Positions 33,956-42,342 of a stretch of DNA of 42,342 nucleotides are shown one piece after another; positions within the stretch are counted from its first letter, which is position 1, and the number at the start of each line of letters is the position of its first letter. The notes under the pieces are model-generated. The model saw only the letters and a list, made by a program, of their open reading frames with translations, ran no database searches and was not told the DNA's origin. The DNA comes from a virus. The translations under genes were made by a program, and so were the position numbers. The stretch lies in IMG/VR virus record IMGVR_UViG_3300013122_000002, positions 1 to 42,342 of that record; one strand, written 5' to 3'.

Positions 33956-33964
33956 TGCTATAAT
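33956..33964 (+). promoter_or_regulatory. extended -10 promoter TGCTATAAT of cassette 1
   Basis: Starts 4 nt after the upstream stop codon. Exactly 6 nt separate the hexamer from G33971, the first base of the leader RNA. Confidence 0.6.
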
Positions 33965-33970
33965 AATTAT

Positions 33971-34034
33971 GCGGATAGAGTGACGGCTCGAAAACCAATT
34001 AACCTGATTGGCTTCCGCATTAATATTTCAGGTT
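33971..34034 (+). ncRNA. structured 5' leader RNA (three-way junction + pseudoknot), copy 1 of 4
   Basis: P1 GCGGA/UCCGC. J1/2 UA. P2 GAG-UGACGG-CUC. J2/3 GAAAA. P3 CCAAU-UAACCUG-AUUGG. J3/1 CU. The L3 loop AACCUG pairs with CAGGUU at 34029-34. Confidence 0.8.
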
Positions 34035-34053
34035 ATTGATAGAGGTATCAAGT

Positions 34054-34635
34054 ATGAAATTAGTCCATGGTGTTGGTTTTAATGATAGAAAATATATAAC
34101 AAGAATTGATGGGAAGAACACAGTTCAATACTCATTATGGTTTAATATGGTTGCTAGATGCTACTCTCCACATATGCTTAAAAATCTACCAACATATAGA
34201 GATTGCTTTCTATCTGATAACTTTCTTGATTTTTCATATTTCCATGAGTGGTTTGATAATCAGCATGGGCGAAAGCTGTTCGACCCAAATATAGATAAAG
34301 ATCTAATCTTTAAAGGAAATAAAATATACAGTGAGGATAATTGTTTTATTCTTCCTCCTGAAGTAAACGGATTGTTTATTAAAAGCAACTCCAAGAGGGG
34401 GCTTTATCCAATTGGCGTTAATTTTAGGAAAAATGATAATAAATTTGTCGCACAAGTAAACGCAATGGGGAAGCGAAAGACTATAGGGTACTCAAAAGAT
34501 CCTATGGAATGTTTTTTAATGTACAAATACGCTAAAGAAAAAGAAATTAAGCGTGTAGCTAGTGTGTGGAGAGATCAAATATCTCCTAAAGCTTATGACT
34601 TGCTTATGAGTTATCAAGTTGAGATAACTGATTAA
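34054..34635 (+). CDS. AP2-domain / degenerate HNH_3-like putative homing endonuclease
   Basis: 193 aa from ATG 34054. GVGFND..Y..W.NMVARCY; IDKDLIFKGNKIYSEDNCFILPPEVN; AP2-like GVNFRKNDNKFVAQV...IGYSKDPMECFLMYKYA. Confidence 0.6.
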   Translation: MKLVHGVGFNDRKYITRIDGKNTVQYSLWFNMVARCYSPHMLKNLPTYRDCFLSDNFLDFSYFHEWFDNQHGRKLFDPNIDKDLIFKGNKIYSEDNCFILPPEVNGLFIKSNSKRGLYPIGVNFRKNDNKFVAQVNAMGKRKTIGYSKDPMECFLMYKYAKEKEIKRVASVWRDQISPKAYDLLMSYQVEITD

Positions 34636-34662
34636 TATAAGAAATACTAATTATCTTTTTAA
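34636..34662 (+). repeat. 5' cassette-boundary repeat (homologous to 42115..42140)
   Basis: TATAAGAAATACTAATTATCTTTTTAA versus TATAAGAAATACTGATTATTTTTTAA: one substitution and one indel. Confidence 0.85.
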
Positions 34663-34674
34663 GAGCAATATTAG

Positions 34675-34680
34675 TATTAT
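34675..34680 (+). promoter_or_regulatory. -10 box TATTAT of cassette 2
   Basis: Exactly 6 nt upstream of G34687. Same distance (38 nt) from the boundary motif as in cassette 4. Confidence 0.5.
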
Positions 34681-34686
34681 GAGTAA

Positions 34687-34749
34687 GTGCCTAGATTAGC
34701 TATCGAACATCGGGAAAGCCTACCGACTGGCACACCATATTTTTAGGCT
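34687..34749 (+). ncRNA. structured 5' leader RNA, copy 2 of 4
   Basis: P1 GUGCC/GGCAC. J1/2 UA. P2 GAU-UAGCU-AUC. J2/3 GAACA. P3 UCGG-GAAAGCCUA-CCGA. J3/1 CU. The L3 loop AGCCUA pairs with UAGGCU at 34744-49. Confidence 0.8.
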
Positions 34750-34766
34750 GTAACTGAGGTAGTTAT

Positions 34767-35231
34767 ATGTTTTATAAAGTTGAGTGTGAAGAAACTTTAT
34801 CCTTGATTGATGCATTTATGGAAAAGCGTAATGCATTATATGATCAAGTTAAATTGATTTGTGAAAAGTACGGATTTGAGATGCATCAAACGCATGACAG
34901 TATTCAGTTTGGCATCCAGTTTTACAATATGGTGGCAAACCCAAATACTGAAATTGATAAATCTTTATGGAAGACGAGAAAACAAAAGAATGGGTATTTA
35001 TGCTTATTGCCACGCGCCACAGCAAAGGATCATAAGAAGGAATATGACGCCCTCACCCCAAAACAAGTTGATTATTCAGAGCTAACAAAACTATTAATCA
35101 AGGATGAATTGCCTTGGAATAAGTCTTATGGATACCGCTACAAGAAAGGCGAGTATTTTATGTTTGAAACATCACTACCTGTATCTGATATTGCTATCGA
35201 GATTCTTGGCAGCGAATACAACAAAGAATAA
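34767..35231 (+). CDS. hypothetical accessory protein (cargo of cassette 2)
   Basis: 154-aa ORF with a GAGG SD 7 nt upstream. No family recognised. Confidence 0.7.
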   Translation: MFYKVECEETLSLIDAFMEKRNALYDQVKLICEKYGFEMHQTHDSIQFGIQFYNMVANPNTEIDKSLWKTRKQKNGYLCLLPRATAKDHKKEYDALTPKQVDYSELTKLLIKDELPWNKSYGYRYKKGEYFMFETSLPVSDIAIEILGSEYNKE

Positions 35232-35232
35232 C

Positions 35233-35276
35233 TAGATTAATGCTAAACTAAGCCCTATCAATGATGGGGCTTTTTT
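35233..35276 (+). terminator. 3' cassette-boundary repeat with an intrinsic terminator
   Basis: TAGATTAATGCTAAACTAAGCCCTATC-AAT-GATGGGGCT followed by T6. Homologous to 374-419. The downstream ATG 35277 abuts the T-tract. Confidence 0.8.
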
Positions 35277-35693
35277 ATGTCTATTAAACTAAGAATGATG
35301 GCGAATAGCGTTACAAGGGCAATAAACCCGAATGTAACCAATGCGGATATTTATGTGAACATTGGATCGGAAACAATCGCAGGCGGTAAGGTTGTGCCGA
35401 AATACACCAAGATTGTGAAAGATATTCAGATTCAGGCGATTCAATCAAAAGACCTTGAGCATTTAAACTTGATCAATCAACAAGGCTCATTCTGCTACGG
35501 ATACATTGACGGTATCATTGACCCTATGATACGTGGCTTAGGCACAGGTTTATCCTATGTTGAGTTTGGTGGTGTAAAATGGACTGTCAAATCCGTGGTT
35601 GAGGATTGGCTCAAGTATGCAAGCGGTGACATCGGTAATGCATTGAATGATCAAAATGGCGATTGGGTGAAGGTGGTATTATGGCGGAAGTAG
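35277..35693 (+). CDS. neck / head-closure-like protein
   Basis: 138-aa ORF between the connector genes and the tail sheath. The function is positional. Confidence 0.55.
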   Translation: MSIKLRMMANSVTRAINPNVTNADIYVNIGSETIAGGKVVPKYTKIVKDIQIQAIQSKDLEHLNLINQQGSFCYGYIDGIIDPMIRGLGTGLSYVEFGGVKWTVKSVVEDWLKYASGDIGNALNDQNGDWVKVVLWRK

Positions 35694-38543: not shown

Positions 38544-38746
38544 GGCAACAAAGCGGACTGTCAATTAATGAAAGTCTGCTTTCTAAGACAGTGAACGTAT
38601 CTGATACCGTGTTTCAAGCCCTACAAACAGGGCTTGTTTCATATACGGACTTAGCATTACACCTAAGCCTAGAGGATGCGTTAAACGTCATAGAGGTGGA
38701 TTTAGTTGCTAAACACAATAAGGCAGTTATAGAGGAGCTTAAATAG
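38127..38746 (+). CDS. tail assembly chaperone, frameshift-extended product (GT-like)
   Basis: Joins frame 0 up to 38519 with the -1 frame ...NRRQFASLGQQSGLSINESLLSKTV...AVIEELK. Its stop overlaps the tape measure GTG (TAGTG). Confidence 0.6.
38513..38519 (+). other. -1 programmed ribosomal frameshift site T_TTT_TTA
   Basis: In frame 0 the codons read GAT TTT TTA. The -1 frame stays open from 38519 to the TAG at 38744-46; 75 codons checked by hand. Confidence 0.7.
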
Positions 38747-40881
38747 TGGCTCATATTGTAGATGCAATCATGGTAACGCTTGGGCTTGATACATCAAAGT
38801 ATACAGCTCAGGCAGAGAATGCCATTAAGACCGATGCACGGCTCGAAAAAAGCCTAGATGGTGTCGAGAAGAAAGGCGGTGCGGTTTCCAAAAACTTTGA
38901 GGGGCTAGCCAACGCTGTAAAGGGTGCTGCTAAGGTTTTTGCGTCTTTGGCTGCTGCGACAGGTATCATCCGATTTTTGCAAAACGTAGCGGAAGAAACG
39001 CGCCAAGCCAATGAGGAAATGCTAAAGCTTCAATCTTCACTTGGTCTAACTGCTGAAAAAATCAATGGTATGCGTGGTGCGGGTGCTGCTTTAGGCGGTA
39101 CAGCCGAGGGCATGACAAATTCAATGAAAGGCCTTAACAAAGGCATGAATGATTTTGTTGTGAAAGGTGATACTTCCCTGCTTCCATTTATGAACGCACT
39201 AGGCGTTTCAATGGTAGACGGACAAGGAAAACTTCGGGACGTAGACAAGGTGATGCTTGATCTATCTGATTCATTCTCAAAAATGAACAGCGAACAAGCT
39301 TACGCACTCGGTCAAGACATGGGTTTCGATGAGGGAACGATTGCAGCATTGATGCAGGGTCGTGACGCCATGAAAGAAATGTCCGAATATCACGCCAAAA
39401 TGTACACATCATCGAAAGAGGAATTAGCAGCAAGCCGAGAGCTATCCAAGAATCAGGCGCAATTATCTGCACATTGGGCAAGCATGAAATTGATGATCGG
39501 TAATGCGATTATCCCCCTACTTGTAAAGCTAACCAACTTTGCTAAGGCATTTTTTGAGTTTTTACAAGATCATCAAAAGACTGTTAAGAACGTATTTGAA
39601 GCAATGGCATTTGTTTTGGGTGCTGTGCTTATTCCGTTATTTGGCAAAGCATTGATTGCAGCACTAGCATTTATTGCACCGTTTGCTCCATTTATTTTAG
39701 TTGTCACAGCAATAGCCGCTGCATTTACCTTGCTTTATGACGACTACAAAGTATGGGCAGAGGGTGGTCAATCATTATTTGATTGGGGTAAATTCTCCGA
39801 CCTTATTGACGGTGCAAAACTTTCCGTTGAAAGCTTGACCAAAGGTTTTGGAGAGCTTGCCGATAAAGTAATGGCTGAGGTTATCCCTACACTCAAAGGC
39901 TATGCGTCAATCATTCAGAAGCTATTTAGCGGTGACTTTGCAGGAGCATCGGCAGAAGCTAAAGAAATGTTTGCTGAGTTTGGTTCGCGTGCTAAGGATG
40001 CTATTAGCCCTGCATGGAATAAAGCTGCTGACTTTATGTTAGGTGGTGCGTTTAAGATGGGCGACAACCAATCCCCTGCTGTTGGTGGTGGCTCATTCAA
40101 GAAATCAAACCACGGTAGCACCTTAGCACTAAGCGAAAGCGATATTATTGATATTATGAAAGTAACATCAACAGAGGTTGTCTCAGGGCTTAAAAACGGG
40201 AATAGCGAAAAGCAAGCAGCGGGTGTAATTGATACTATTCTTAACCGAGCTGCGTCAGGGAAATTTGGCAAAGGGGTGCGTGGTGTTGCAAATCAGCGTT
40301 GGGCGTTTTCCGCTATTAATGCGCCACGAAAAGGAGCTTATGGAAGTGTGCAAAATGTTCCTATGGATAAAGTATCACCTAGTATGCAGGCTTTTGTGCG
40401 CGACTACTTGAGAAAACGCGCCGAGGGAATGCCATCGAGTGTTGGTGAAAACTTATCTTATGCAAATCCAAATTATTTAGGGGAAGCTAGTTCAGCCACT
40501 AAAAAATGGGTTGCAGAGGTTGAAAAACAAGCCAAAGCGTCAGGTCAGATTTTCGGCTCAGGAAAAGCTATTCATGTTCATGGAACACCATCGGCAGACC
40601 GCAGCAAGATGCCCTCTCCATTCAATGTGGCTATTCCAGATCAACCATCCAACCTACAACAAGGCGCAGCACAAGCACAAGGCATGGTTCAGCAAAGCGC
40701 TACACCAAGAAAGCTTTATAACAGCAAAGGTCTACAATCCGATATGCAAAGCCGCTCAGTTGATGTGAAAATGGGTGACTTGAATATCTATACAACAGCT
40801 TCAAGCGTGTCGGGCATTACTTCCGATGCAATGCGTGGAGTTGAAGCAAGCCTTAACAATCTTGGCACAAGTATGGCATAA
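38746..40881 (+). CDS. tape measure protein with a C-terminal cell-wall-hydrolase-like domain
   Basis: 711 aa, GTG start. Coiled-coil-type N-terminal half and a hydrophobic block (FVLGAVLIPLFGKALIAALAFIAPFAPFILVV). The stretch AAGVIDTILNRAASGKF...NQRWAFSAIN resembles the SleB/Hydrolase_2 family. Confidence 0.8.
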   Translation: MAHIVDAIMVTLGLDTSKYTAQAENAIKTDARLEKSLDGVEKKGGAVSKNFEGLANAVKGAAKVFASLAAATGIIRFLQNVAEETRQANEEMLKLQSSLGLTAEKINGMRGAGAALGGTAEGMTNSMKGLNKGMNDFVVKGDTSLLPFMNALGVSMVDGQGKLRDVDKVMLDLSDSFSKMNSEQAYALGQDMGFDEGTIAALMQGRDAMKEMSEYHAKMYTSSKEELAASRELSKNQAQLSAHWASMKLMIGNAIIPLLVKLTNFAKAFFEFLQDHQKTVKNVFEAMAFVLGAVLIPLFGKALIAALAFIAPFAPFILVVTAIAAAFTLLYDDYKVWAEGGQSLFDWGKFSDLIDGAKLSVESLTKGFGELADKVMAEVIPTLKGYASIIQKLFSGDFAGASAEAKEMFAEFGSRAKDAISPAWNKAADFMLGGAFKMGDNQSPAVGGGSFKKSNHGSTLALSESDIIDIMKVTSTEVVSGLKNGNSEKQAAGVIDTILNRAASGKFGKGVRGVANQRWAFSAINAPRKGAYGSVQNVPMDKVSPSMQAFVRDYLRKRAEGMPSSVGENLSYANPNYLGEASSATKKWVAEVEKQAKASGQIFGSGKAIHVHGTPSADRSKMPSPFNVAIPDQPSNLQQGAAQAQGMVQQSATPRKLYNSKGLQSDMQSRSVDVKMGDLNIYTTASSVSGITSDAMRGVEASLNNLGTSMA

Positions 40882-40882
40882 T
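40874..40882 (+). promoter_or_regulatory. extended -10 promoter TGGCATAAT of cassette 3
   Basis: Overlaps the tape measure stop codon. Exactly 6 nt lie between the hexamer and G40889. Confidence 0.5.
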
Positions 40883-40888
40883 TAATAC

Positions 40889-40951
40889 GTGGCTAGGGTA
40901 GCTCCCGAAAATCGTGCAACCTACACGACCGCCACGTTAATTTTTTAGGTT
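40889..40951 (+). ncRNA. structured 5' leader RNA, copy 3 of 4
   Basis: P1 GUGGC/GCCAC. J1/2 UA. P2 GGG-UAGCU-CCC. J2/3 GAAAA. P3 UCGUG-CAACCUA-CACGA. J3/1 CC. The L3 loop AACCUA pairs with UAGGUU at 40946-51. Confidence 0.8.
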
Positions 40952-40967
40952 ATTTAAGGTGAATGTT

Positions 40968-41189
40968 ATGACAGTTACGGTAAAAGTTGTTGACATAGAT
41001 AAGATTAAAAAAACAGTAACAATTGAAGCTTGGTGTGATCGTGGAGGGCATAGAGTTATGCGAACCCCATTTAGTTATAAGCAGCAATCAAAGAAATCAA
41101 TTGAGTCAATGTTGAGAAAAGAGCTGAAAGCGTTTCAACAACCAGTATGGGGTGGTTTTTGCGTTCAATTCTATTGCAGCGTTGATTGA
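40968..41189 (+). CDS. hypothetical 73-aa accessory protein (cargo of cassette 3)
   Basis: ATG 40968 lies 6 nt after an AAGGTG SD; GTG 40959 is possible. MTVTVKVVDIDKIKKTVTIEAWCDRGGH.... Confidence 0.6.
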   Translation: MTVTVKVVDIDKIKKTVTIEAWCDRGGHRVMRTPFSYKQQSKKSIESMLRKELKAFQQPVWGGFCVQFYCSVD

Positions 41190-41197
41190 TGTAAACT

Positions 41198-41219
41198 AGC
41201 CCTCAATAGAGGGCTTTTT
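41198..41219 (+). terminator. intrinsic terminator of cassette 3
   Basis: AGCCCTC-AATA-GAGGGCT followed by T5. Confidence 0.75.
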
Positions 41220-41232
41220 AATTGGTGAATTT

Positions 41233-41844
41233 ATGGCAATGGCTGGAATGCCGAGTATCCCCAACTTTAAGGGATTGGTAACTGCGGGTACTGACGCTGC
41301 AATCAACTTAGGTGGCGCAGCATTAATCCGCGCTGTATTCGGTGAAGTATGGGGTTTGGTTAATGAATTTGGCGTGCCGATTCTTTTGTCGGATAGTGTG
41401 AAGAACGTTGACTATACAAACAGCTCAACCATTTCTAAATTCTTGATTGAGAAAGGCTCATTTAGCTCATACAACAAAGTCACCGATCCGCGCTTTTTAT
41501 CGGTTCAGTTGATTAAATGGAAAGGTACAAAGCTTGAGAAATCAGCTTGGTTGGCTCAGCTTGAGCTATACGCAAACAGCACACTTAAATTCCATGTTGT
41601 TACACCTGAATACCTATATCGAAATTACAACATTACGCGCCTTGCCTACATGCGCGACAACACTTCAATTCAGATGATTACAGCGTCTATTGATTTAGAG
41701 GAAGTGCGTGAGGTTCAGCTTGAGTTTGGAACACAAGAAGCCAAAGCAGAGCAAGATAATTCCACGGTTGAGGGTGGAACGGTTCAGCCTAAGGAAGCTA
41801 GTCAATCCATGCTGTCGAAACTTGCAGGGAAATTTAACCTATGA
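41233..41844 (+). CDS. distal tail / baseplate-associated protein
   Basis: 203-aa ORF after the tape measure gene. GGTG SD. The function is positional. Confidence 0.6.
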   Translation: MAMAGMPSIPNFKGLVTAGTDAAINLGGAALIRAVFGEVWGLVNEFGVPILLSDSVKNVDYTNSSTISKFLIEKGSFSSYNKVTDPRFLSVQLIKWKGTKLEKSAWLAQLELYANSTLKFHVVTPEYLYRNYNITRLAYMRDNTSIQMITASIDLEEVREVQLEFGTQEAKAEQDNSTVEGGTVQPKEASQSMLSKLAGKFNL

Positions 41845-42119: not shown

Positions 42120-42140
42120 GAAATACTGATTATTTTTTAA
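42115..42140 (+). repeat. 5' cassette-boundary repeat (homologous to 34636..34662)
   Basis: TATAAGAAATACTGATTATTTTTTAA. Overlaps the TAA stop of the upstream gene. Confidence 0.85.
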
Positions 42141-42150
42141 TTAAGTAAAT

Positions 42151-42159
42151 TGTTATTAT
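42151..42159 (+). promoter_or_regulatory. extended -10 promoter TGTTATTAT of cassette 4
   Basis: Exactly 6 nt lie between the hexamer and G42166. Confidence 0.55.
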
Positions 42160-42165
42160 TGTTTT

Positions 42166-42226
42166 GTGGCTAGAGTCATTCTCGAAAGCTATGCAACCTA
42201 CATAGTTGCCACATCATATTTTAGGT
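42166..42226 (+). ncRNA. structured 5' leader RNA, copy 4 of 4 (3' end lies in the terminal repeat and equals bases 1-7)
   Basis: P1 GUGGC/GCCAC. J1/2 UA. P2 GAG-UCAUU-CUC. J2/3 GAAAG. P3 CUAUG-CAACCUA-CAUAG. J3/1 UU. The L3 loop ACCUA pairs with UAGGU at 42222-26. Confidence 0.8.
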
Positions 42227-42244
42227 ATCAATGAGGATTGAATT

Positions 42245-42342
42245 ATGGATTCTATGCAAGCATTTGCGAATGGTGAAGCTAATCGAGGAAAGGAGTTAAT
42301 GGTTTTTGATTGGGAAAAAGCCGTTAATCTAATTAATGAAAA
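42245..42342 (+). CDS. 5' part of the same gene as 26..376 (duplicate created by the terminal repeat)
   Basis: Identical sequence to 26-123, truncated by the window end. Confidence 0.9.
   Translation, partial: MDSMQAFANGEANRGKELMVFDWEKAVNLINE

Follow-up and report, generated by a model that had tools for sequence, protein, structure and literature searches.

Between the tape measure gene and the gene for a distal tail protein-like (Dit-like) protein, the virus genome IMGVR_UViG_3300013122_000002 carries a short unit, cassette 3, that is probably an autonomous accessory-gene cassette of the moron type, translated under the control of a cis-acting leader RNA of the int-alpA family and with its cargo gene exchanged at the two cassette ends. 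The window analyzed here is the whole stretch of 42,342 nucleotides (nt). A preliminary description, made from the letters of the sequence, had placed at this junction a promoter overlapping the tape measure TAA, a leader RNA, an AAGGTG Shine-Dalgarno (SD) sequence, an open reading frame (ORF) at 40968-41189, and a terminator at 41198-41219. Sequence inspection and scans locate all of these elements at those places (Table 1); the leader is present, but its membership in the Rfam family int-alpA (RF02996) had been missed.

The junction that houses cassette 3 was compared in 16 viral contigs encoding a relative of the Dit-like protein and in phage Scipio. The preliminary description had suggested asking whether this junction is empty or differently filled in related phages, and both states occur. 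In Scipio, 8 nt separate the tape measure gene from the Dit-like (tube-initiator) homologue, and the gaps in L142 and L145 are only 2-3 nt. In close relatives, whose Dit-like proteins are 89-98% identical, the same junction holds different cargo: a metallophosphatase in L139 (with an int-alpA-type leader and the shared terminator), a DUF551 protein followed by an 81-amino-acid (aa) ORF in L137 and L138 (with an int-alpA-type leader in L137), and a Rha-family (Rha-like) protein in L136 (with a plain promoter, no leader, and the shared terminator). All of this cargo ends in a common terminator and a common spacer, AATTGGTGA(A/G)TTT, ahead of the ATG. Distant relatives (~45% identity) have toxin-antitoxin-like pairs at the junction, as judged by sequence inspection only, and these have no int-alpA leader.

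Identity between cassette 3 and three close relatives (L136, L137, and L139) is high at the 3' end of the tape measure gene (91-93%), the terminator (86-91%), and the 5' end of the Dit-like gene (84-94%), and is about 30% in the cargo. The joint formed by the promoter and the first helix of the leader (P1) is 96% identical in L139, which has the exact left joint TATGGCATAATTAATACGTGGCTAGG in common with cassette 3 and begins to diverge inside the leader. As read from these alignments, the profile shows cargo exchange between related phages to occur at the promoter-leader end and at the stop-terminator end. In L136, a copy of the terminator module (2204-2250) lies directly after the tape measure stop codon, and a plain TGGTATAAT promoter then drives the Rha-like gene; this arrangement looks like an empty socket followed by another kind of moron.

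The end modules of cassette 3 recur around other genes, and the window holds three further int-alpA cassettes (C1, C2, and C4, cassette 3 being C3). At the 5' end, the final codons of the tape measure gene (AGT ATG GCA TAA) are the source of the -10 element TGGCATAAT, which reads TG-n-CATAAT, overlaps the TAA at 40879-40881, and has 10 of 12 consensus matches in a promoter scan. The tape measure C terminus (...NNLGTSMA*) is identical in L136, L137, and L139, and a TGnTATAAT-type element stands at equal spacing to the leader in QH4, Brutus, L139, and L137. At the 3' end, stops in all three frames (TGA 41183, TGA 41187, TAA 41192, and TAG 41197) precede the terminator, AGCCCTC-AATA-GAGGGCT plus TTTTT, whose stem pairs 41198-41204 with 41209-41215 (-12.9 kcal/mol; z, -2.8). 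The same module, (T)AAACTAGCCCT-loop-AGGGCTTTTT, also closes C2, C4, and cassettes in QH4, Brutus, L136, L137, and L139; QH4 and Brutus carry these end modules round different cargo and at another site than that of cassette 3.

Given these ends, host RNA polymerase would start at about G40889, the predicted transcription start at the base of P1, and transcription would end at 41198-41220. A transcript beginning at P1 would have a base-paired 5' end, and with its own start and its own terminator the cargo would be expressed, probably early in infection, without relying on late transcription. The conserved ends would act as homologous recombination sites for cargo exchange, as in the PeSL cassettes of T4-type phages considered below. 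The two edges of cassette 3 carry a 7-nt repeat, TATGGCA, at 40872-40878 (AGTATGGCATAA, at the tape measure end) and at 41231-41237 (TTTATGGCAATG, at the start of the Dit-like gene), and TATGGC/TATGGT is repeated at the left joint of L137; the repeat may be insertion microhomology or may be due to chance.

The distribution of the cargo gene also sets it apart from the tail module. The ATG at 40968 is the true start of the ORF, because all homologues begin MTVTVKV. The 73-aa protein matches phrog_18516, a family of unknown function (E = 1.3e-18), and has no match among Pfam families; the preliminary description had recognized no family, which holds for Pfam and for known function but not for PHROG. 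The family is tiny, with only 20 clusters among 1.84 billion representatives. Close homologues (68-89% identity) occur in L009 and L011, next to DUF1064, methyltransferase, DUF3310, Imm_superinfect, and HNH genes. The homologue in L010 forms a lone cassette, with promoter, int-alpA leader, ORF, and terminator, between two opposite-strand genes beside a primase gene, and more distant homologues come from Obolenskvirus fThrA, where the gene is in the early region, and from Ab105-2phi, where it follows the DnaB helicase gene. Homologues are thus found in early or replication-type clusters or as a stand-alone cassette, and never among tail genes.

These observations bear directly on whether the ORF could encode a conserved tail protein with a structural or assembly role, expressed from the late operon and flanked by promoter- and terminator-like signals that arose by chance. 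Its strand, which is that of the surrounding tail gene block, and its size, which is like that of small tail or assembly proteins, would fit such a role, but the ORF is absent from the empty junctions, is replaced by unrelated genes in L136-L139, and has no conserved position in the tail module of any relative examined. With homologues in early or replication clusters and flanking signals that recur round other cargo, this explanation can hardly be correct. The preliminary description had taken the cargo to be nonstructural, naming a conserved tail component as the finding that would count against it, and its assignment stands.

The leader of cassette 3 matches positions 1-71 of the 71 in RF02996 and scores 78.7 bits with our own covariance model, R1. 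This model was built because an Rfam search of seven related loci together (L001, L002, L010, L135-L139; E ≤ 0.1) returned no match, despite several clear copies. Within the window, a default search at the gathering threshold found one of the four int-alpA copies; Rfam scans under-report int-alpA, due to filter settings.

In the consensus alignment, P1 encloses two hairpins, P2 and P3, together with the conserved joining strands CUAG and CGAAAA. Covariation in P1, P2, and P3 over 39 sequences exceeds that of controls: 88.5% of cells pair, as opposed to 65.2% after shuffling, and the helix covariation score is 0.576, as opposed to 0.144 for shuffled alignments and 0.07-0.14 for slid controls. 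Among 155 copies, TAnnnT hexamers are most frequent at 9-15 nt upstream of the C of CUAG (82 in this bin versus ~15 in other bins). This fixed distance to a -10-like hexamer puts the predicted start of transcription at the base of P1.

Beyond P1, the leader contains two sites that can pair with the P3 loop. Site 1 is the Watson-Crick complement of the loop and begins a median of 8 nt after P1; site 2, a second complement, follows at a median distance of 14 nt, and with its end at a median of 7 nt upstream of the start codon it overlaps the SD sequence. Loop and site 1 vary together, as in the pairs AACCUG/CAGGUU, AGCCUA/UAGGCU, UCGUCA/UGACGA, GCACC/GGUGC, and CCUCA/UGAGG. In a permutation test on 43 distinct loop classes (2000 permutations), the best complement at site 1 averaged 4.91 nt (permuted, 2.65 ± 0.12; maximum, 3.12) and that in the SD region averaged 4.77 nt (permuted, 3.15 ± 0.13). 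Both sites, with a second complement of at least 4 nt overlapping the SD sequence, are present in 26 of the 43 classes (permuted, 0.31; maximum, 4). Triplets of loop, site 1, and site 2 include UCGUCA/UGACGA/GACGAgg in an enteric copy, CUACG/UCUACG/CUACGagg, UCCGC/GCGGA/GCGGAg, and AUCCCG/CGGGAU/CGGGAgg. At the level of sequence, these comparisons show the leader to be a three-way junction whose P3 loop pairs with the site 8 nt after P1, forming a pseudoknot. They also show across the family, and weakly in cassette 3, that the loop can instead pair with a near-copy of site 1 overlapping the SD sequence.

Such a leader would act in cis on translation initiation of the following gene, and probably also on the stability of the 5' end. 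With the loop parked on site 1, in the pseudoknot, the SD sequence would be left free; with the loop on site 2, it would be masked. An ORF starts ~20-50 nt downstream of the leader in nearly all copies. The downstream genes are very diverse: they include DUF551 and DUF2213 proteins (Pfam) and many hypotheticals and, by sequence reading only, DUF1376-like replication genes, HNH and GIY-YIG endonucleases, and recombinases. In the bacterial genomes L186, L224, and L239, inspection places HNH and GIY-YIG endonuclease genes after int-alpA leaders.

The position of the two sites also bears on whether the element is a cis-acting leader or a trans-acting small RNA (sRNA). Rfam labels RF02996 as "Gene; sRNA," a promoter lies directly upstream, and cassette 3 and other AT-rich copies have a U-rich stretch after P1; the RNA might then end at P1 and the U-run at 40938-45, with the ORF expressed only by occasional read-through or from late transcripts. 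We consider this quite unlikely. A U-rich tract follows P1 in just 19 of the 69 parsed copies, with none in the enteric and Pseudomonas copies, and P1 plus U-run was for this reason rejected as a general intrinsic terminator. Site 1 and the SD-overlapping site 2 lie downstream of P1 and covary with the P3 loop, so this sequence belongs to the functional RNA, and the following ORF starts at a near-constant short distance. Moreover, loops differ among the four copies in the window: C1 has one loop and C2 another, each matched by a downstream site of its own, and C3 and C4 have the pair CAACCUA/UAGGU in common. Because the pairings of the P3 loop include a site overlapping the SD sequence, int-alpA looks like a cis-acting translational leader and not a trans-acting sRNA.

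The leader could alternatively be mainly a passive 5' stabilizer and insulator that does not switch, a natural counterpart of synthetic RiboJ-type insulators, in which the paired 5' end protects the mRNA and the autonomous fold, together with a hairpin displaying the SD sequence, gives a portable cassette context-independent expression. The predicted start at the base of P1 in most copies is consistent with this role, as are the diversity of the cargo and the many genomic contexts. In 31 of 35 copies, a small hairpin is predicted to form in the stretch from site 1 to the start codon, and in most copies the SD sequence falls in or near its loop. A purely passive role is nonetheless very unlikely, since it leaves unexplained both the covariation of the P3 loop with an SD-overlapping second site and the strict conservation of the junction across phyla.

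This conservation extends well beyond phages. A scan of viral contigs with the 19-nt core of the leader returned 120 loci (109 unique), and a scan of one genome per species returned at least 120 more (L152-L271); the core specifies 17 bases, so that tens of chance matches are expected in the 596 Gb searched. Most of the matches nevertheless look genuine. Among the genome loci, 96 of 100 reach E ≤ 0.001 with our own model, about 70 score at least 45 bits, and P1 is in the right place at 94 of 104 parsed sites; cores with a proper P1, P3, and pseudoknot occur among L152-L271 in at least eight phyla. The matches listed come from Alpha-, Beta-, Gamma-, and Deltaproteobacteria, Acidobacteriota, Planctomycetota, and Bacillota, and further from Actinomycetota, Chloroflexota, NC10, and Verrucomicrobiota. 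One match in an archaeal metagenome-assembled genome (L189; 36.5 bits) may be chance or contamination. To our knowledge, the int-alpA family has been described only for Pseudomonadota and phages.

Viral contigs and genomes of at least eight phyla share an almost unchanged core of ~19 nt, GGCUAGGGUnGnUCCCGAA, surrounded by helices that vary. RNAs with an invariant binding partner typically show conservation this broad. Together with the two mutually exclusive pairings that involve the SD sequence, it would fit a riboswitch-like aptamer in which a ligand or factor, be it a universal metabolite, the ribosome, or another host component, binds the three-way junction, locks the loop on site 1, and frees the SD sequence. 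We regard such an aptamer as unlikely; the genes downstream are of many kinds and do not point, by association, to any ligand, and an Rfam search matches no known riboswitch class. Two further identities for the RNA were rejected. The order of its junction strands (CUAG/GAAAA/CU) is similar to that of a hammerhead-like ribozyme, but by inspection the CUGAUGA core is absent, and no Rfam ribozyme matches. Mimicry of initiator tRNA by the GGG/CCC of P2 is not borne out by other Acinetobacter copies, which have GAG/CUC, GAU/AUC, or GGA/UCC. No functional study of int-alpA was found in the literature searched.

Several observations weigh against reading cassette 3 as an autonomous unit with a translational leader. 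The promoter scan of this single sequence gives 9 sites when 9.0 are expected, which is no enrichment, and the leader folds with an energy no better than that of shuffled sequences (z, -0.36 and +0.4). In the family, G:U cells in the helices (20) are not clearly in excess of A:C cells (16); the case for strand-specific RNA pairing is therefore made from context and not from wobble pairs. In cassette 3 itself, site 2 is just a 4-nt complement of the P3 loop (AGGU, inside the SD sequence), and no stable SD hairpin is predicted. The duplex energies of the two pairings are similar (-6.1 kcal/mol for loop and site 1 and -6.7 kcal/mol for loop and site 2) and do not fix the default state. P1 with its following U-run resembles an attenuator and could end most transcripts before the ORF, and a strong terminator 13 nt ahead of an essential tail gene is expected to be polar on late transcription unless it is read through.

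Since neither the promoter match nor the folding energy rises above chance alone, the case for cassette 3 is comparative and draws on the covarying structure, the hexamer at fixed distance in 155 copies, and the end modules shared round other cargo. Likewise, with a weak site 2 and no SD hairpin in this copy, the switch model rests on other members of the family.

Table 1. Coordinates of cassette 3, its flanking genes, and the other int-alpA cassettes in the window
Feature	Position	Strand	Details
Tape measure gene (left flank)	38746..40881	+	711-aa ORF; phrog_3824, phrog_2276 (tape measure), Pfam Hydrolase_2
Sigma-70-type promoter	40853..40882	+	TTAACA, 18-nt spacer, extended -10 TGGCATAAT at 40874-40882
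int-alpA leader RNA match	40886-40950 (65 nt)	+	Rfam RF02996, 44.7 bits; gathering score, 35.8
Three-way junction core of leader	40887..40937	+	P1, P2, J23, P3, L3
P1 helix	40887-40893 with 40931-40937	+	Leader core
P2 hairpin	40896-98 with 40904-06	+	Leader core; GGG 40896-98, loop UAGCU, CCC 40904-06
J23 strand	40907-11	+	Leader core; GAAAA
P3 helix	40912-16 with 40924-28	+	Leader core; loop L3 CAACCUA 40917-23
U-rich linker	40938-45	+	Between P1 and site 1
Site 1	40946..40951	+	UAGGUU; 3' strand of pseudoknot, partner is P3 loop AACCUA 40918-23
SD sequence	40956..40961	+	AAGGUG (DNA AAGGTG); 6-nt spacing to ATG 40968
Cargo ORF	40968..41189	+	73 aa (MTVTVKV...FYCSVD); ATG to TGA
3' end module	41183..41220	+	Three-frame stops, then intrinsic terminator
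Dit-like/tail tube initiator-like gene (right flank)	41233..41844	+	Pfam Dit_like, 7.4e-10
Cassette 1 (C1)	33956..34635	+	After head-completion genes; extended -10 TGCTATAAT 33956-64; leader 33968-34033; ORF 34054-34635
Cassette 2 (C2)	34636..35276	+	Follows C1; leader 34684-34748; 154-aa ORF 34767-35231; 3' stop/terminator module 35232-35275
Cassette 4 (C4)	42120..42342, then 1-419 (circular)	+	Between Pam3_gp18-like plug and baseplate hub gene (420); promoter module; leader 42164-42240

Four cassettes of this one design are present in the window. The preliminary description had implied three; a relaxed Rfam threshold finds the leaders at 33968, 34684, and 40886, and R1 adds that at 42164-42240. 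The leader of C1 scores 44.7 bits with Rfam and 54.7 bits with R1, that of C2 scores 31.2 bits with Rfam, below the gathering score, and 59 bits with R1, and that of C4 was missed by Rfam and scores 57.7 bits with R1. The C1 ORF matches phrog_953 (E = 5e-62) at profile positions 196-388 of 420 only, corresponding to the C-terminal half of an HNH homing endonuclease, and this cargo may be a truncated or split homing endonuclease. The C2 ORF is orthologous to the QH4 cargo, which has the same genome position, and the C2 terminator folds with -14.8 kcal/mol (z, -4.2). C4 spans the ends of the window: its 116-aa ORF runs from 42245 onward (26-376), its 3' module occupies 377-419 (-14.7 kcal/mol; z, -4.7), and its cargo has no match in Pfam or PHROG. 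C2, C3, and C4 all close with the module (T)AAACTA(A)GCC..loop..GGGCTTTTT, preceded by three-frame stops and directly followed by the ATG of the next gene. An upstream leader peptide was considered and rejected, the ATG in AATGAGGA of several cassettes not being conserved as an ORF.

Stable terminator hairpins at 35250-35272, 41198-41215, and 393-414 sit 2-13 nt before essential late genes (starting at 35277, 41233, and 420). Late transcription might pass these three cassette terminators by antitermination, through leakiness, or by reinitiation from the cassette promoters.

An AlphaFold2 model of the cassette 3 cargo from 25 sequences is confident (predicted local distance difference test [pLDDT] score, 93.4) and has the topology β1-β2-β3-α-β4; an earlier model from 9 sequences (pLDDT, 58) was too poor for use. 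The preliminary description had proposed modeling the protein and searching with the model, and this yielded a confident fold but no match of known function: Foldseek finds no significant match in PDB (best E, 0.03), a BFVD structure search returns only the protein's own family, and a sequence profile search of PDB gives only a spurious coiled-coil match. The weak structural matches (E ≥ 0.03; TM score, about 0.5) are to RNase H-like and sugar-kinase β-β-β-α-β half-domains, and in the absence of conserved catalytic residues no function was assigned from them. Zinc binding by WCDRGGH and CVQFYC was rejected as well, the cysteines and histidine not being conserved in the wider family. Since the gene usually lies among early genes and the protein has no catalytic signature, the most likely role of the cargo is that of a small early- or accessory-class binding protein that takes part in host takeover or serves some other accessory purpose.

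Because its terminal 123 nt (1-123 and 42220-42342) are identical, the window represents a complete genome, circular or circularly permuted, of ~42,219 bp plus an assembly overlap. By sequence, its source is an Obolenskvirus-like Acinetobacter phage of roughly 42.2 kb, and the only named relatives at the DNA level are Acinetobacter Obolenskvirus phages, at low coverage. Baseplate and fiber genes come first, followed by early genes on the opposite strand (ERF, dUTPase, and helicase), replication genes, terminase, portal, capsid, sheath, tube, chaperone, and tape measure genes, and finally the Dit-like protein and a Pam3_gp18-like plug. A scan of 10 ORFs detected no integrase, and the phage looks like a virulent relative of Obolenskvirus.

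The tape measure proteins of the window (38746-40881), L136 (141-2204), and L139 (88-2193) have their ends in common and differ in their central cell wall hydrolase modules. This central part is a Hydrolase_2-type segment in the window and L137 and is formed by other lysozyme-like segments in L136 and L139. The hydrolase domain thus appears, from these alignments, to be swapped within the tape measure protein among close relatives.

Cassette 3 combines features of several known systems. Morons were reportedly described in lambdoid phages of the HK97/HK022 type by Juhala and coworkers in 2000, and in the HK022 record gp20, gp22, srb, and cor bear the annotation "moron gene product." Like these, cassette 3 is an extra gene with its own predicted promoter and terminator, placed between tail genes that are adjacent in relatives (2-8 nt apart in Scipio, L142, and L145), and its cargo is unrelated to virion structure. 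The terminator is present at the sequence level; the promoter consists of an extended -10, whose position is kept across cassettes, and a -35-like hexamer, although the single-sequence scan is not above chance. Cassette 3 differs from morons in its conserved 5' and 3' end modules and structured leader, which lie outside the moron definition, and in being one of four cassettes of a single design in a genome where prophage expression is doubtful. The moron architecture assigned in the preliminary description is thus upheld by the empty or otherwise filled junctions and the shared ends in relatives, but since the phage looks virulent and no integrase was found, the lysogenic-conversion sense of the term may not apply, and cassette 3 is better described as an early-type accessory cassette located in the late region.

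The int-alpA motif RF02996 is said to go back to Weinberg and coworkers in 2017 (PMC5737381). The leader of cassette 3 exceeds the gathering threshold over the full model and has P1, P2, P3, and the CUAG and CGAAAA strands. Whereas the Rfam type is a small RNA, the comparison indicates a cis 5' leader with a pseudoknot, an SD-overlapping site, a promoter at fixed distance, and a range beyond Pseudomonadota, and two of the four copies in the window fall below the Rfam threshold or are missed. In the rep mRNAs of IncI-alpha and IncB plasmids (repZ and repA), an activator pseudoknot in which a distant hairpin loop pairs next to the SD sequence governs translation initiation. Pairing of a loop with a short SD-adjacent sequence of the downstream gene is common to both systems, but there is no homology in sequence or structure. 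The plasmid systems use a leader peptide and an antisense RNA, neither of which is evident here, and in the int-alpA leader a decoy site competes for the loop.

A structured RNA of ~70 nt acting in cis at the 5' end of phage transcripts also recalls HK022 put. This antiterminator RNA, located just downstream of early promoters, consists of a pair of stem-loops arranged as a V and lacks a closing helix (PMC9378689). R1 run with filters off on the whole HK022 genome detects no int-alpA (best score, 11.7 bits; E = 0.14), and a put-like antiterminator, which would have no enclosing helix, was rejected; the pairing to the SD sequence points to translation and not to antitermination.

The closest parallel in working is with the promoter-early stem-loop (PeSL) elements of T4-type phages, in which conserved promoter/terminator motifs bound nonessential ORFs of unknown function (PMC2839356; PMC4122927). 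Differences between close relatives map to these motifs, suggesting that recombination between them shuffles the cargo (PMC2839356). The ends of cassette 3 are similarly conserved and its cargo variable, the differences in L136, L137, and L139 map to the end motifs, and the same ends occur in QH4, Brutus, and L010. PeSL, however, is a composite of terminator stem-loop and promoter that has no structured translational leader, whereas the 5' module of cassette 3 contains a three-way-junction/pseudoknot RNA found far beyond this phage group. The resemblance is by analogy, and cassette 3 is set beside PeSL for its way of working and not by homology.

Cassette 3 itself is an ordinary moron or accessory cassette, of an already known kind. 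What appears to be new is the modular system of four cassettes, the identity of the leader as int-alpA, and the recasting of an orphan motif as a widely distributed 5' translational leader. One small, virulent-type Acinetobacter phage has put four accessory genes into one standard "socket" of promoter, leader, cargo, and three-frame stops with terminator, and in close relatives the same sockets are filled with different genes. A simple rule at the sequence level can thus find recently acquired accessory genes in a phage group that is used in phage therapy against A. baumannii, and the socket genes are candidates for host-takeover or anti-defense roles.

The orphan Rfam motif, in turn, gains a concrete model: a 5'-terminal three-way junction, a decoy-site pseudoknot, an SD-overlapping second site, and a core conserved across phyla. 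If this model is true, the int-alpA element would be a natural compact part for context-independent gene expression. A wider proposal, which we offer tentatively and consider doubtful, is that int-alpA serves mobile elements of at least eight phyla as a portable translational control module, its junction binding a metabolite or the 30S subunit and thereby setting the loop between the decoy site and the SD sequence. If so, metabolite binding by the junction would define a new riboswitch class, and the int-alpA module would give phages a prefabricated expression cassette to place before genes that they have newly gained.

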